64,000 nucleotides of DNA from Deltaproteobacteria bacterium (GCA_036676765.1 JAKFCH010000148.1:11141-75140); one strand, 5' to 3'; positions 51,519 through 60,245 are shown, counted from the first letter of the stretch. Notes: generated by a model from the letters alone, not told the origin. Translations and numbers: made by a program.

Positions 51519-52844
51519 TCACGGAGCCGTGGGGTGTACGCCCGCTTCGGCTCGCGCGCCGGCGCCACGCCGGAAGCTCCAGGTGAGGGCCGGGGGCGTG
51601 AGCAGCGTGGTGAGGATGACCATGATCACCACCGCGGTGAACGTGCCGTCGTCGATGATGCGCTCGCCCGCCACGGTGAGCCCGAGGCCGATGTTCGCGA
51701 AGATGAGGCCCACCTCGCCGCGCGGGATCATGCCGATGCCGACCGGCAGCCGGCGGATGGACTTGTCGAACACCCCCAGCATGCACACCTGCTTGCCGAT
51801 GACCGCGGCCACCGTGAGCGCGAGGGCGAGGCCGAGCACCTCGACGTGGGCGAACGTCGCGAGGTCCACGCGGAAGCCCATGACGACGAAGAACACCGGC
51901 GCGAGGAACTGCGAGACCGGCCGGACGAGCTCCTCGAGCTCGTGCTCCCCCTTGGCCACGAACGGCTTGTAGTGCACGCCCTCGAGGATGAGCCCGGCGG
52001 CGAACGCGCCGACGATGGGGGCGAGGCCGAACACGCCGGCGAGCCAGGACAGGGCGAAGCAGAAGGCGAGGCTCACCCCGAGGAGCACGCCGCTTCCCTG
52101 CATCCGGCTGGCGAACCGGTACAGCGCCGGGGTCAGGAGCACGCCGAGGCCGACGGAGCCGCCGAGGAACAGGACCGCCTTGCCGACGATGATCGCGATG
52201 GGGCCGAGCTCCGCGGCCTGCCCCTGGTCGGCGGCGGCGATGATCCCGCTCACCGCCGCGAGGGCGACGAGGCCGAGGACGTCGTCGATCACCGCGGCGC
52301 CGAGGATGACCCGCGCCTCCTTGCTCTGGCTCTGCCCGATGTCGCGGAGCACGCGCGCGGTGATGCCGACGCTCGTGGCGGTGAGCGTCGCGCCCAGGAA
52401 CATGTGCACGTAGAACGAGTGCTCCGGCAACAGGACGGCGCCGACGCCGAAGCCGAGCACGAACGGCGCGACGACGCCGAGCACGGCGACCACCGCGGCG
52501 GACAGCCCCACCCGCGCCATCTGCTGGATGGTCGACTCCAGACCGACCTCGAACAGCAGCACGATGACGCCGAGGTTGGCGAGGGCGTCCACGATCGGGT
52601 CGGTGCCGACGAAGTCGAAGACGCGGACGCCGAAGAGGTCGAGGTTCCCGACGAGCACGCCGCCGACGAGCTCGCCGAGCACGGCGGGCTGGCCGAGGCG
52701 CTGGGCGAGGTCGGCGCCGAACTTGGCGGCGAGGAGGATGATCGTGAGGGCGAGGAGGGTGGGCCCGAGGGAGTCGTGCCCCTCGCTCGCGTGCGCGACC
52801 ATCGGGAGCGCGCAGAGGAACAGGGGAATCAATCGAGCGCGCAC
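51519..52844 (-). CDS. cation:proton antiporter (CPA2 / Kef-type Na+/H+ exchanger family)
   Basis: Polytopic. LLAAKFGADLAQRLGQPAVLGELVGGVLVG, FEVGLE, and GMIPRGEVGLIFA near the C-terminus. I take GTG 52844 as the start. The ORF stays open to 53051 through the tandem repeat (see finding). Confidence 0.8.
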   Translation of the reverse strand: MRARLIPLFLCALPMVAHASEGHDSLGPTLLALTIILLAAKFGADLAQRLGQPAVLGELVGGVLVGNLDLFGVRVFDFVGTDPIVDALANLGVIVLLFEVGLESTIQQMARVGLSAAVVAVLGVVAPFVLGFGVGAVLLPEHSFYVHMFLGATLTATSVGITARVLRDIGQSQSKEARVILGAAVIDDVLGLVALAAVSGIIAAADQGQAAELGPIAIIVGKAVLFLGGSVGLGVLLTPALYRFASRMQGSGVLLGVSLAFCFALSWLAGVFGLAPIVGAFAAGLILEGVHYKPFVAKGEHELEELVRPVSQFLAPVFFVVMGFRVDLATFAHVEVLGLALALTVAAVIGKQVCMLGVFDKSIRRLPVGIGMIPRGEVGLIFANIGLGLTVAGERIIDDGTFTAVVIMVILTTLLTPPALTWSFRRGAGARAEAGVHPTAP

Positions 52845-52883: not shown

Positions 52884-53033
52884 GACGTCCGTCCGTCGGG
52901 GATGGCGCGCTACCCGGGGCGGACGGACGTCGGGGACGTCCGTCCGCCGAGGATGGCGCGCTACCCGGGGCGGACGGACGTCTGGGACGTCCGTCCGGCG
53001 AGGATGGCGCCCTACCCGGGGCGGACGGACGTC
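52884..53033. repeat. three tandem 51-nt units, each a 12-bp perfect inverted repeat around a 24-nt loop
   Basis: Arms are GACGTCCGTCCG and CGGACGGACGTC, at 52884-95/52920-31, 52935-46/52971-82 and 52986-97/53022-33. Loops are NCGRGGATGGCGCSCTACCCGGGG. Spacers are GGG and TGG. Confidence 0.85.
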
Positions 53034-55934: not shown

Positions 55935-56627
55935 CTATCCCCGCCGCCGCGCATACAGAACCGCCTCCGCCTGCCGCTCCCGCGCGAGCGCCCCGTCGGA
56001 CTCGTCGGCGTCGATGAGCGCCTTTGCCATCGCGACGGCCACCGGATCGCGCTCCGCGACCTCCCGCGCCCACGCGAGCGCCTCCGCGCGCGGATCCGCG
56101 GCGATGCGGTGCACGATCCCCCAGGCGAGCGCGGCCTCCGCGTCGAGCACCCGCCCCGCGAGGATGACCTCCTTCGCGCGGGAGGGCCCCGCGAGGCGGG
56201 TCAGGCGCGTGGTCCCGCCTGCCGACGGGAGGATCCCCAGGCGGGTCTCCGGCAGCGAGAACCGCGCCGCCGGCCCCGCCACGCGCAGATCGCACGCGAG
56301 CGCGAGCTCGAACCCGCCCGCCACGGCCGCCCCCTGGATCGCCGCGATCGTCACCACCGGCAGCCGGGCGATCGCCGTGAACACCCGCTGCGACCGCAGC
56401 TCGAGCGCGTCGAGCGGAGAGGCCTCCTTCATCGCGTCGAGATCGGCCCCCCCGCAGAACGCGCGATCGCCGGTCGAGGCCACCACGAGCACCCGGTGGG
56501 TCGCCGCCAGGGACTCCGCCGCGACCAGCAGCGCGTCGAGGTGGGCGCGGTCGTAGGCGTGGGCGCGGTCGGGTCGATCGAGCCACAGCAGGCCCACGAC
56601 GCCCTGGCTGTCTGTGCGGATCGGCAT
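55935..56627 (-). CDS. enoyl-CoA hydratase/isomerase (crotonase) family protein
   Basis: AFCGGADLDAM, GAAVAGGFELALACDLRVA, ETRLGILPSAGGTTRL. Confidence 0.85.
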   Translation of the reverse strand: MPIRTDSQGVVGLLWLDRPDRAHAYDRAHLDALLVAAESLAATHRVLVVASTGDRAFCGGADLDAMKEASPLDALELRSQRVFTAIARLPVVTIAAIQGAAVAGGFELALACDLRVAGPAARFSLPETRLGILPSAGGTTRLTRLAGPSRAKEVILAGRVLDAEAALAWGIVHRIAADPRAEALAWAREVAERDPVAVAMAKALIDADESDGALARERQAEAVLYARRRG

Positions 56628-56649
56628 CTCGTCGAATAACCTCTCCTCG

Positions 56650-57384
56650 ATGATGTTCCGCGTGGTCTGGGACCAGATCGAGGAGTGCCCCTACCGCCCC
56701 GAACAGCTGGCGCGGCTCCCGCTGCGCCTGCCTTCCCGCATGATGACGCCCGACGAGCTCGACACCCGCCTCGCCCTGGGCGAACGTCGCTCCGGGCGCA
56801 TGGTCTACCGCACCCAGTGCCCCGCCTGCACCGCGTGCGAACCGCTGCGCGTGCCGGTCGCCCGCTTCCGGCCGACCACCTCGCAGCGCCGCGCGTGGCG
56901 CCGCAACGAGGGCGTCGTCCACGTCGAGGTCGGCCCCCCCGAGCTCTCCGAGGAGCGCCTCGCGCTGTACAACCGCCACAAGCTGGAGCGCGGCCTCTCG
57001 CGGACCGAGGAGCCGCTCGGCCCCATCGGCTACCGCGCCTGGCTCGTCGACACGTGCGTGGAGAGCCGCGAGTTCCGCTACTTCGTCGGCACGAAGCTCA
57101 TCGGCGTGAGCATCGTCGACGTGGGGCGCACCAGCGCGTCGAGCGTCTACCACTACTTCGATCCCGACGAGTCCCGCCGCTCGCTCGGCGTCTACTCGGT
57201 CCTCCGCGAGATCGCGTGGTGCGCCGAGGCCGGGCTCGAGTGGTACTACCTCGGTCTGTACGTCGAGGACTGCGTCCACCTCGCCTACAAGGCCGCGTAC
57301 AACCCCCACCAGCGTCGCATCGATGGGGTGTGGACCGACATCGACCCGCCAGCCCCCGGGGTCTCGGCCATGGAAGGGCCGTAG
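56650..57384 (+). CDS. bpt: arginyl/leucyl-tRNA--protein transferase family (ATE/Bpt, N-end-rule aminoacyl transferase)
   Basis: Real part of ORF 56614..57384, from MMFRVVW. CPYRPEQ, YRTQCPACTACEPLRVPVARFRPTTSQRRAWRRN, LYNRHKLERG, SSVYHYFDPDESRRSLGVYSVLREIAW, YYLGLYV. These are ATE_N and ATE_C signatures. Confidence 0.8.
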   Translation: MMFRVVWDQIEECPYRPEQLARLPLRLPSRMMTPDELDTRLALGERRSGRMVYRTQCPACTACEPLRVPVARFRPTTSQRRAWRRNEGVVHVEVGPPELSEERLALYNRHKLERGLSRTEEPLGPIGYRAWLVDTCVESREFRYFVGTKLIGVSIVDVGRTSASSVYHYFDPDESRRSLGVYSVLREIAWCAEAGLEWYYLGLYVEDCVHLAYKAAYNPHQRRIDGVWTDIDPPAPGVSAMEGP

Positions 57385-57425
57385 CGCGCCGCGCGGACGC
57401 CCCCCATCGCGCTAAGCTCCCGCCC

Positions 57426-58928
57426 GTGAACCCCCGCCTGCGCACCTTCCTCGTCTGGGCCGCCCTCTTCGCCGTGCTCCTCGCGATCGTGGCGCTCCGC
57501 GCGGCGGACGACGTCCTCGTCGAGCGCGACTACGGCGTGTTCGTCGCCGACCTGCTCGCGCACCAGGTCGATGCCGTGGAGAGCGACGGCTACGACCTCG
57601 TCGTCCACCCCCTCGACGGCACCCCCTACGTCGTCGAGGGGGCCGCCACCGAGGAGGTCATCGACTGGATCGAGGAGCAGGGCCTCCCCGTCGGCTACCG
57701 CGAGTCCGAGTCGAGCAACCTCCTGCCCATCGTGCTGCTGCTCGCCATCGTGGTCGGCGCGCTCTACTTCCTGCGCCGCTACCAGCAGCAGCGGGGCACC
57801 GCCGGACAGAACACCATCTTCGACATGCGGAAGTCCAACGCCCGCAAGCTGGCGCCGGGTGTAGAGAAGACCCGCTTCGCCGACGTGGGCGGTCACGCCG
57901 AGGCGAAGGAGGTCCTCGCCGACGTGGTCGACTTCCTCAAGGATCCGTTGCGGTGGACCTCGGCGGGCGTCCAACTGCCGCGCGGCGTGCTCCTCGAGGG
58001 GCCCCCCGGCGGCGGAAAGACCCTCCTCGCGCGCGCGGTCGCGGGCGAGGCCGGCGTGCCGGTGTTCGTCATCTCCGCGAGCGAGTTCGTCGAGATGTTC
58101 GTGGGCGTGGGCGCCGCGCGGATCCGCGATCTCTTCGACACCGCGAAGAAGGCCGCGCCCGCGGTGATCTTCATCGACGAGATCGACGCCGTCGGGCGCC
58201 GGCGCGGGTCGGGGCTCGGCAGCTCGCACGACGAGCGCGAGCAGACGCTCAACCAGCTCCTCGTCTGCATGGACGGTTTCGAGCCCACCACCCGGCTCGT
58301 CGTCATCGGCGCCACCAACCGCTCCGACGTGCTCGACCGCGCCTTGTTGCGGCCCGGCCGCTTCGGCCTCCGGCTCGTCCTCGGCCCGCCCGACCTCGAC
58401 GCGCGCGCCGCCATCCTCGCCATCCACTGCCGGGGCAAGCGGCTCACGCCGGGCCTCGACCTACGCGCCGTCGCCGCGCGCACCCCCGGGGTGTCCGGGG
58501 CCCTCCTCGAGCACCTCTGCAACGAGGCGGGCCTGCGGGCCGTGCGGAGGAGCCGGAAGGACGCCTCCGAGACCGTCATCACCCTCGACGACTTCGGGGT
58601 CGCCCTCGCGGCCGTCGCGAAGACCGAGCGCACGTTCGACGCGCTCGACGCCCTGTTCGTCGAGTCCACCAGCCAGTTCAGCCAACCCACGGGAGACGTG
58701 TTCGCGCGCCTCACCCTCACCGACGCCTCCGTCATCGAGGGGCGCATCGTGTGGGCGGACGCCGGCTACGTGAAGATCGAGCCCCTCGCCGCCATCGACG
58801 GCATCGCACCCCCGCCGCGCCTCGTCCCGAAGGCCCGGATCTCCGCCGCCGAGGCCCTCGCCGGCACGAGCGTCGCGACCGAGATCCGCCCCGACGCGTG
58901 GGCGGCCAACCGCACGGGAACCGCGTGA
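57426..58928 (+). CDS. FtsH-like membrane AAA+ ATPase lacking the M41 protease domain
   Basis: Real part of ORF 56685..58928, with a GTG start at 57426. It has two TM segments flanking a periplasmic-type domain, Walker A GPPGGGKT, pore loop FVEMFVGVGAARIRDLF, Walker B VIFIDEIDA and SRH TNRSDVLDRALLRPGRF. There is no HExxH after the AAA lid. Instead there is an about 120-aa unrelated C-terminus. Confidence 0.85.
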   Translation: MNPRLRTFLVWAALFAVLLAIVALRAADDVLVERDYGVFVADLLAHQVDAVESDGYDLVVHPLDGTPYVVEGAATEEVIDWIEEQGLPVGYRESESSNLLPIVLLLAIVVGALYFLRRYQQQRGTAGQNTIFDMRKSNARKLAPGVEKTRFADVGGHAEAKEVLADVVDFLKDPLRWTSAGVQLPRGVLLEGPPGGGKTLLARAVAGEAGVPVFVISASEFVEMFVGVGAARIRDLFDTAKKAAPAVIFIDEIDAVGRRRGSGLGSSHDEREQTLNQLLVCMDGFEPTTRLVVIGATNRSDVLDRALLRPGRFGLRLVLGPPDLDARAAILAIHCRGKRLTPGLDLRAVAARTPGVSGALLEHLCNEAGLRAVRRSRKDASETVITLDDFGVALAAVAKTERTFDALDALFVESTSQFSQPTGDVFARLTLTDASVIEGRIVWADAGYVKIEPLAAIDGIAPPPRLVPKARISAAEALAGTSVATEIRPDAWAANRTGTA

Positions 58929-59587
58929 TGGACGCGTTCCTCGACTGGCTCGCCCCCTGGCTCGGCGAGCGCCTCGTGTTCTGGATCCCGTTCGTGTTGT
59001 CGTTGGCGGTGCACGAGTACGCCCACGCGCGCGCCGCCTCCTGGTTCGGCGACAACACCGCCGAGGCCCAGGGCCGGCTCACCCTCGATCCCTTCGCGCA
59101 CATCGATCCCATCGGCACCCTGGCGCTCCCGCTGATCGGCGTGCCGATCGGGTGGGCCCGGCCCGTGCCGGTCAACCCGGCGAACTTCCGCGTCGGCGGC
59201 GACGGTCGCCTCGCCATGTTGTTCACCGCCGCCGCCGGACCGCTCTCCAACGTCGTCATCGCGCTCGCGTGCGCCGCGGTCATCGCCGTCCTCGGCGCGA
59301 TCGCACCGGCGCTCGTCGGCGGCGCGTTCGGGCAGGTGCTCGCGTCGACGGTGGTGCTCAACGTCGCGCTCGCGCTGTTCAACCTGCTCCCCATCCCGCC
59401 GCTCGACGGCAGCCGCGTCGTGGACTGGTTGTGCCCCGACTGGCTCCGCCCGCTCTGGACCGCGCTCTACGCGCGCGCCGGCATCGGCATCGCGCTCGTG
59501 CTCATCGTCCCGATGCTGCTCGGCCTCGATCTCGGCGGCTGGGCGCTTGCGTTGGGTCAGGGGCTGATCGGTTTCGTCACGCCGTAG
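58928..59587 (+). CDS. M50 (site-2 protease) family membrane metalloprotease
   Basis: Real part of ORF 57953..59587. The ATG overlaps the upstream TGA (TGATG). Motifs: HEYAHARAA (HExxH) and FNLLPIPPLDGSRV (NxxPxxxLDG). Polytopic. Confidence 0.8.
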   Translation: MDAFLDWLAPWLGERLVFWIPFVLSLAVHEYAHARAASWFGDNTAEAQGRLTLDPFAHIDPIGTLALPLIGVPIGWARPVPVNPANFRVGGDGRLAMLFTAAAGPLSNVVIALACAAVIAVLGAIAPALVGGAFGQVLASTVVLNVALALFNLLPIPPLDGSRVVDWLCPDWLRPLWTALYARAGIGIALVLIVPMLLGLDLGGWALALGQGLIGFVTP

Positions 59588-59600
59588 GGAGCCCCCCCTC

Positions 59601-60245
59601 TCAGTTCTCCCCCTCCCCCTTCTTCTCCGCCCGCGCCTCGCGCAGGTCCGCCGCGGCCTTCCGCAGGCTGTTCGCCACGGCGTCGAGCTTGGCGACGGTG
59701 TCCTCGCTCGCGAGCAGGGCGCGGAGCTGGTCGGGCAGCGCCTCCACCGAAGCCACCCCGTCGGGGAGCAGGCCCTCCTGCTTGAGCGCCTCCGCCACGT
59801 CCTTCATCCGCTCCGCCGCCACCTCGGGCGCGTGCACGGACTCCTGCGCGGTGGTGAGGATGCCGGTGAACGTGGCCTTGATCGCCGCCCCGAGCGCGGC
59901 GGGATCGTCCCGGAGCTGGTCGCGCCCGAGCTTCAGGCTCTCGGCCACCCGGGCCTCGCGCGCCGCCACGGCCTCGGGATCGAGCTTCGGCGCGGTCGAC
60001 AGCGCCTTGGCCGCGCTCATCGCCACGGTGCGCACCTTGTCCGCGAAGCCTCCGAGCACCGCCTGCGCGAGCTTCATCGCTTCGGCCTCGGGCACCTCGT
60101 AGACATCGAGGGCGACCGGATCGGCCTCCAGCTTCTTCCCGGTGAGCGAGCGGACGATGAAGTCCCCGCCTGGAAGCTTGGCATCGTCCGGCACGTGGAA
60201 GAAGCGCTTGCGGTCCTCGCTCGCGTAGAGCGTGTGGCTTGCCAT
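59601..60245 (-). CDS. hypothetical protein (Ala/Glu-rich helical C-terminal half)
   Basis: 214-aa ORF with normal composition and GC3 bias. No family recognised. Confidence 0.55.
   Translation of the reverse strand: MASHTLYASEDRKRFFHVPDDAKLPGGDFIVRSLTGKKLEADPVALDVYEVPEAEAMKLAQAVLGGFADKVRTVAMSAAKALSTAPKLDPEAVAAREARVAESLKLGRDQLRDDPAALGAAIKATFTGILTTAQESVHAPEVAAERMKDVAEALKQEGLLPDGVASVEALPDQLRALLASEDTVAKLDAVANSLRKAAADLREARAEKKGEGEN

Follow-up and report, generated by a model that had tools for sequence, protein, structure and literature searches.

The window analysed here, a 64,000-nt stretch of DNA from a Deltaproteobacteria bacterium (GCA_036676765.1 JAKFCH010000148.1:11141-75140), carries a gene for an FtsH-derived membrane AAA+ ATPase that lacks the M41 protease domain and, directly downstream of it, a gene for a small M50 (site-2-protease family) metalloprotease. 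The two genes (hereafter AAA and M50) form a conserved two-gene module that is probably coupled at translation. With about even confidence, and from sequence comparison, the pair is read here as an ATP-dependent membrane proteolysis or extraction module in which the motor and the M50 protease would share substrates. In a first-pass annotation of the window the bpt gene immediately upstream had been added to this pair as a possible source of N-degrons; the protease-less, FtsH-derived ATPase with a conserved M50 neighbour stood up to the present analysis, and bpt as part of the module did not. The three genes are:

56650-57384, + strand: bpt, ATE-family aminoacyl-tRNA-protein transferase, 244 amino acids (ATG at 56650, TAG at 57382-57384)

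57426-58928, + strand: AAA, FtsH-derived membrane AAA+ ATPase without M41, 500 amino acids (GTG at 57426, TGA at 58926-58928)

58928-59587, + strand: M50, small polytopic M50 (site-2-protease family) metalloprotease, 219 amino acids (ATG at 58928, TAG at 59585-59587)

Reading of the sequence showed the layout to be exactly as first annotated: the three open reading frames (ORFs) are co-directional, a gap of 41 nt (57385-57425) separates bpt from AAA, and the stop codon of AAA overlaps the start codon of M50 as TGATG. No terminator-like site was found between the three genes, and the G+C content around the locus is approximately 72%.

The genomic context of the AAA gene was compared across 27 distinct loci, including the window. 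Nineteen of these were obtained by scanning one genome per GTDB species with the peptide pattern [VLK]WADAxF[LI]K[ILV], which was built from a 10-sequence subset of the C-terminal alignment and covers the C-terminal domain alone, and these loci were therefore chosen without reference to M50; the remaining eight came from context look-ups of further family members. Of the 19 scan loci, 17 had a tblastn match to M50 directly downstream in the same orientation, and 18 had an M50 gene as neighbour. In all eight look-ups AAA preceded M50, and the stop codon of AAA often overlapped the start codon of M50. Overall, M50 was adjacent in 26 of the 27 loci and co-directional downstream in 25, with intergenic distances between -4 and approximately 115 nt and overlapping stop and start codons in several pairs. 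The synteny survey that the first-pass annotation had called for hereby showed a strongly conserved adjacency, which is not a product of chance. Pairwise distances among the AAA proteins and among their M50 neighbours were correlated (r=0.59), a value reached in 0 of 2000 Mantel permutations.

An all-against-all BLAST of the flanking ORFs returned no third recurrent gene family; only AAA, antisense shadow ORFs of AAA, and M50 recurred. Enoyl-CoA hydratase genes were found near the AAA-M50 pair in four of 25 loci (the window, at 55935-56627 on the minus strand, as well as L009, L010 and L025) at varying positions and in varying orientations, and this recurrence is probably due to chance because the family is so common. 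A long M50 ORF in locus L021 was considered as a putative fusion and rejected as an artefact; it arises from an open frame that overlaps an ORF on the minus strand whose translation is long and coherent.

The AAA protein is clearly FtsH-derived, judging from the alignments and a structural model, and keeps the membrane anchor, the periplasmic domain and a predicted catalytically complete AAA+ motor. In Pfam it matched PF00004 (E=2e-41) and AAA_lid_3. The best NCBIfam model was TIGR01241 (FtsH_fam) with 412.6 bits against a cutoff of 600, the score remaining below the cutoff because only model positions 107-392 of 598 were matched. The match to PRK10733 covered positions 6-380 of 644 and began at residue 9 of the protein, and the alignment with E. 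coli FtsH (7vhp) paired residues 7-381 with residues 4-381, membrane anchor included. Faint matches to PF06480 (FtsH_ext) were obtained for relatives of the protein. The AlphaFold2 model had a mean predicted local distance difference test score (pLDDT) of 81.6 and placed an AAA fold after the anchor region. From these analyses the protein was divided as follows:

57432-57794, + strand: FtsH-type N-terminal anchor with a first transmembrane helix (residues 3-26), a small periplasmic alpha/beta domain (residues ~30-95) and a second transmembrane helix (residues 99-123), according to the AlphaFold2 model and the FtsH alignments

57873-58571, + strand: AAA module, with motif residues conserved in a 28-sequence family alignment, pLDDT mostly 84-94

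58635-58865, + strand: predicted Sm/Hfq-like domain in place of the M41 protease, residues ~404-480, with a helix (406-413) followed by five strands

58866-58925, + strand: conserved C-terminal tail, residues 481-500, with the consensus D-x-W-A-x-R-x3-L-A-COOH (here DAWAANRTGTA)

The AAA module contains a Walker A motif (GPPGGGKT, residues 192-199, nt 57999-58022), a pore-1 loop (MFVG, residues 224-227, nt 58095-58106), the Walker B residues D251 and E252, the sensor-1 residue N298 and the arginines R309 and R312 of the second region of homology (SRH). In the 28-sequence family alignment the Walker A, Walker B, pore-loop and sensor-1 residues were invariant or nearly so and both SRH arginines were invariant; given the established AAA+ mechanism, ATP hydrolysis and polypeptide translocation in the manner of FtsH are to be expected of this motor. 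The FtsH-type N-terminal topology, the AAA module with its aromatic pore loop and the second region of homology had all been noted in the first-pass annotation and were recovered by the alignments, the AlphaFold2 model and the invariant motifs. The protein is nevertheless not FtsH proper, because the M41 domain that defines FtsH was tested for and is absent. No match to M41 (PF01434) was obtained for the AAA protein, even at E<=10 with the C-terminal region (the last ~115 residues) as query. A degenerate M41 remnant was considered and ruled out, as neither Pfam nor NCBIfam models covered the region and the predicted fold is one helix plus five strands; the earlier claim that M41 had been replaced by an unrelated domain was hereby borne out.

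Modest but consistent scores indicate that these last ~115 residues are an Sm/Hfq-like domain. AlphaFold2 models of the full-length protein and of the domain alone both gave a helix followed by five strands, which is the Sm topology, with pLDDT mostly 74-94. The top Foldseek matches of the model in the PDB were almost all Hfq or Sm proteins (target-normalised TM-score 0.6-0.7, E ~0.02-0.1), and a family profile of 24 members searched against PDB sequences matched cyanobacterial Hfq (3hfn, E=0.0036) and Caulobacter Hfq (6gwk, E=0.047). The Pfam model Hfq_1 (PF21979) scored 12.5-23.3 bits, with the highest value in relatives and all below its cutoff of 27, and precomputed PF21979 annotations are present on some family members. 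With Hfq and the bacterial Sm proteins (3hfn, 6gwk; PF17209, PF21979) the domain shares the predicted topology of an N-terminal helix and five strands, together with a Gly and an Asp of Sm1 type and a Lys of the Sm2 motif (K469, aligned with Hfq K56), all three of which are invariant in the family; it differs from Hfq in being fused to an ATPase instead of acting as a free RNA chaperone.

This resemblance raises the possibility that the Hfq-like domain binds RNA, in which case the protein would chaperone or remodel RNA while tethered to the membrane and its link to M50 would be secondary. We consider this very improbable. The matches to Hfq and Sm proteins and the invariant K469 fit such a function, whereas the profile alignments show no conservation at the positions corresponding to the proximal RNA-pocket residues of Hfq (F42, Y55 and H57). 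The best PDB match is to the Hfq of a cyanobacterium, and cyanobacterial Hfq proteins are reported to be poor RNA binders. Furthermore, the motor carries the protein-translocating pore loop of FtsH, and its conserved partner is a protease.

The tail that follows the Sm/Hfq-like domain has D490 and A493 conserved in at least 90% of the family and ends in Ala in most members. Residues 492-500 had pLDDT values <50 in the AlphaFold2 model and are probably disordered. By analogy, the tail could serve for docking as in the proteasomal ATPases, or could be a C-terminal degron of ssrA type.

The combination of an FtsH-type N-terminus, an AAA module and an Sm-like domain defines, at the sequence level, a family and not a one-off. 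More than 100 clusters (90% identity) of proteins with 484-538 amino acids were 45-77% identical to the AAA protein over approximately 100% of its length, and M41 was present in none of them. A profile of the C-terminal domain, searched against 1.84 billion cluster representatives (50% identity clustering), retrieved 121 proteins at E<=1e-3 and 96 at E<=1e-10. Among the matches, full-length proteins had 484-538 amino acids with the domain always at the C-terminus, and the short ones look like gene fragments. The domain was nearly confined to the FtsH-N plus AAA architecture, the few other proteins consisting of tandem Sm/Hfq/LSM repeats and themselves scoring above the thresholds of the Pfam Hfq and LSM models. 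Family members occur mainly in Myxococcota and Planctomycetota; the scan loci were recorded, by title, as metagenome-assembled genomes of Myxococcota or ‘delta proteobacterium’, Planctomycetota (Pirellulales, Thermoguttaceae, Planctomycetaceae and Schlesneria), Acidobacteria and Spirochaetales, and one further locus lies on a 1.8-kb contig binned to Alcaligenaceae. One carrier of the AAA-M50 pair, L016, is a metagenome-assembled genome labelled Schlesneria paludicola. No NCBIfam model names the family. The tandem-repeat proteins are an observation in their own right: P0352 (727 aa), P0355 (420 aa) and P0323 (531 aa) each contain three to five tandem Sm/Hfq/LSM-like domains, two of them also have C-terminal HEAT repeats, and covalently repeated bacterial Sm domains are unusual.

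The downstream gene encodes, by all sequence criteria used, a bona fide M50 intramembrane zinc protease with a predicted intact active site. Its product matched PF02163 with 45.5 bits (cutoff 27.2) and weakly matched the site-2 protease MjS2P (3b4r). The polytopic M50 protein with HEYAH (nt 59012-59026) and NLLPIPPLDG (nt 59381-59410) that had been described in the first-pass annotation was confirmed by the PF02163 score and by the conservation of its key residues: in 23 homologues H29, E30, H33, N152 and D160 were invariant, as were the motifs HExxH and NxxPxxPLDG. A long loop after the first hydrophobic helix was likewise invariant (GDxTAxxxGRLTLxPxxHIDPxGT). Pfam detected neither a PDZ nor a CBS domain in the protein itself.

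The assignment of the first gene as an ATE/Bpt-family transferase was also upheld, by matches to PF04376 (ATE_N, E=1.9e-16), PF04377 (ATE_C, E=1e-31) and NF002346 (274.5 bits, cutoff 170). Its place in a three-gene module was not: bpt was found in 0 of the 26 other AAA loci (tblastn, E<=1e-3) and hence in one of 27, the window alone. It was absent even beside the AAA relatives with 75-77% identity (L024, L028 and L029), whose upstream genes encode an M3-like peptidase or uncharacterised proteins. The three-gene synteny is therefore not borne out, and bpt is a mere neighbour, a local coincidence that does not belong to the conserved module. Within the window it may be co-transcribed with AAA and M50, since it lies 41 nt upstream on the same strand with no terminator-like site between. 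This arrangement is what speaks for a three-part model in which N-degrons made by Bpt route substrates to an AAA-M50 machine, a model that we regard as scarcely credible. It is largely refuted by the synteny, and because bpt is missing from the 26 related loci the proposed N-degron link is unsupported. No ClpS-like N-degron reader domain was detectable in the AAA protein with Pfam or NCBIfam, and the products of Bpt are read, as far as is known, by ClpS and ClpAP. With this result, a connection to the N-degron pathway that was tempting but lacked support falls away.

In the reading preferred here, the motor and M50 would act on the same membrane-protein substrates. Beneath the AAA ring the Hfq-like domains would assemble into a hexameric collar and hold the ring together, as M41 does in FtsH, a proposal that draws on the hexameric rings formed by Hfq, which fit an AAA hexamer. 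M50 would cut in or beside a transmembrane segment on the cytoplasmic side, whereupon the membrane-bound AAA ring would grip the new end and pull the fragment from the bilayer or unfold it. Alternatively, the motor might first unfold a bulky or blocking domain, after which the transmembrane segment could enter M50. The net effect would be an FtsH split in two, with an intramembrane protease as its cutting subunit.

Several observations weigh against this reading. Locus L008 has no M50 gene within 5 kb, and the M50 gene next to AAA in L022 is transcribed divergently. No AAA-M50 fusion was present among the top 120 matches to a query in which the C-terminal domain was joined to M50, and no other direct sign that the two proteins touch was found. 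The Sm-like assignment, on which the collar depends, rests on modest scores (Foldseek E ~0.02; Pfam below threshold). The geometry is awkward as well, with the FtsH pore exit facing away from the membrane and the M50 active site lying in it; direct threading into M50 is therefore unlikely, and cutting followed by extraction is more plausible. Finally, M50 proteins with approximately 50% identity were also found without an AAA gene. In L027 and in Minicystis rosea (L030, CP016211, 297606-306250) such a solo M50 gene lies directly after lnt, which itself follows a GMC oxidoreductase gene, and another one was found in a different context. This type of M50 is therefore not generally dependent on an AAA partner; judging from these homologues it can work alone, and AAA looks like an add-on. 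The idea of an M50 clade dedicated to the AAA partner was examined and is not supported, the ~50% identical homologues being stand-alone. As a separate observation, the site linked to lnt (apolipoprotein N-acyltransferase) is a second conserved context of this M50 type, seen in two separate records, and may hint at a role of M50 in lipoprotein or signal-peptide processing.

The stand-alone homologues also fit another explanation, namely that the AAA and M50 proteins serve membrane-protein homeostasis independently and that their adjacency reflects a shared need for expression. The absence of fusions among the top 120 matches and the merely moderate distance correlation (r=0.59) point in the same direction. 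Against it, the two genes have stayed adjacent in 26 of 27 loci spread over several phyla, with all other neighbours turned over, stop/start overlaps are frequent, and such conservation usually means a functional link or a complex; we consider mere co-expression quite unlikely.

The conserved pairing would fit equally well with ATP-gated regulated intramembrane proteolysis, in which M50 would be a signalling site-2 protease, acting for example on an anti-sigma factor, and not a general extractor. AAA would then be a gatekeeper or adaptor that removes an inhibitor or an obstructing domain, or that senses the energy state of the cell. Substrates of site-2 proteases normally have to be primed, SpoIVFB uses a CBS domain to sense ATP, and the M50 protein described here has neither a PDZ nor a CBS domain of its own. 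On the other hand, no gene for a sigma factor, an anti-sigma factor or another candidate substrate recurs beside the pair, and the genes that flank it are heterogeneous housekeeping genes. This explanation was considered unlikely on balance.

A stronger version of the proteolysis or extraction reading, which we find rather doubtful, would make the pair a new class of energy-dependent intramembrane protease. An FtsH-type hexamer held together by an Hfq-type ring would dock M50 protomers at the membrane, possibly through the C-terminal tail, and ATP hydrolysis would be coupled to cleavage of site-2 type and to dislocation. Such a machine would be a bacterial counterpart of rhomboid-p97 endoplasmic-reticulum-associated degradation (ERAD) that arose by domain replacement in FtsH.

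The two proteins were compared with known systems. With FtsH (TIGR01241, MEROPS M41; 7vhp) the AAA protein shares the anchor of two transmembrane helices around a periplasmic domain, the AAA module with its FVG pore loop, and the SRH, but in place of the M41 zinc-protease half it has the Sm/Hfq-like domain and the conserved tail. With the site-2 proteases RseP, SpoIVFB and MjS2P (3b4r) the partner shares HExxH and NxxPxxxLDG, but it is a minimal core of approximately 219 residues without PDZ or CBS domains. Protease-dead FtsH relatives are used as motors in the chloroplast FtsHi/Ycf2 complex, which resembles the present family in re-using FtsH-derived AAA proteins for non-proteolytic work; FtsHi keeps a degenerate M41 domain, however, whereas M41 is replaced here, and the partner and cellular setting of FtsHi differ. 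In ClpXP, HslUV and PAN/Mpa-20S the ATPase and the peptidase are likewise separate polypeptides, often encoded in one operon, and the conserved C-terminal tail of the AAA protein is reminiscent of docking tails of the HbYX type. Their peptidases differ in being soluble, self-compartmentalised barrels stacked coaxially on the ATPase; M50 would be a membrane-embedded monomer or small oligomer, and coaxial stacking is therefore not expected.

Similar in logic is the RseA pathway, in which an AAA+ machine acts on the fragment released by a site-2 protease (PMC12203970). A similar order of cutting and then processing is proposed here. The AAA protein differs from the RseP-then-ClpXP relay in being membrane-anchored, in sharing an operon with M50 and in having no peptidase of its own. 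In the case of RHBDL4 and p97/VCP in ERAD, an AAA+ ATPase that extracts cleaved membrane-protein fragments from the bilayer works together with an intramembrane protease (bioRxiv 10.1101/848754, PMC9437926). The likeness lies in the combination of an intramembrane protease with an AAA+ ATPase of the classical clade. The RHBDL4-p97 system is, however, eukaryotic, its protease is a serine rhomboid and not a zinc M50, p97 is soluble and recruited by a binding motif and ubiquitin, and there is no homology to the AAA-M50 pair beyond the AAA fold. The FtsH-containing MoxR-vWA conflict (ternary) systems have two AAA domains and no M50 (PMC7159879), and hence a different architecture.

No description of an AAA-M50 pair or of an Sm-domain relative of FtsH was found in the open-access literature, an absence that is not proof. 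The comparison suggests that what is new is the application of two-component AAA+ protease logic to an intramembrane protease, with a coupling that we infer, together with a new domain replacement in FtsH. In the prevailing view M50 site-2 proteases are ATP-independent and FtsH is a self-contained ATPase-protease. If the reading of the pair as a proteolysis or extraction module were true, this would be the first case in bacteria of an AAA+ machine reserved for an intramembrane protease, and an Sm/Hfq ring domain could substitute for the protease ring in an AAA+ hexamer. The pair also offers a concrete, testable system for how cleaved transmembrane fragments leave bacterial membranes, and it is found mainly in Myxococcota and Planctomycetota, in which membrane proteostasis is poorly studied.

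A role in anti-phage defence was considered and rejected: the PADLOC models gave only generic AAA-domain matches (IetA and TRIP13) for the AAA protein and none for M50 or bpt. A DarT-Macro pair (DarTG-type toxin-antitoxin) lies approximately 1 kb upstream of AAA-M50 in L026 (320-2004), on a freshwater metagenome contig, and was seen in no other locus.

The other neighbours in the window are unrelated to the three genes and encode a Na+/H+ exchanger, a thioesterase, an AraC regulator, a glyoxalase, an enoyl-CoA hydratase, an ABC transporter and a DegT aminotransferase. The following features border the locus or lie further upstream:

59601-60245, - strand: ORF of 214 amino acids, convergent with M50, the two stop codons being separated by 13 nt

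55935-56627, - strand: enoyl-CoA hydratase gene, divergent from bpt

51519-52823, - strand: Na+/H+ exchanger gene

52884-53033: tandem repeat of a 51-bp unit in 2.9 copies with 94% matches

The 214-amino-acid ORF had no match in Pfam, NCBIfam or PADLOC, nor did it have a counterpart at the related loci. The predicted starts of the enoyl-CoA hydratase gene and bpt are 22 nt apart (56627-56650), so that the promoters must be placed within coding sequence unless one of the start codons has been assigned wrongly. The 51-bp repeat is located where the Na+/H+ exchanger gene has its 5' end or a little upstream of that point, and one frame of its unit encodes a repeated peptide rich in Arg and Pro.

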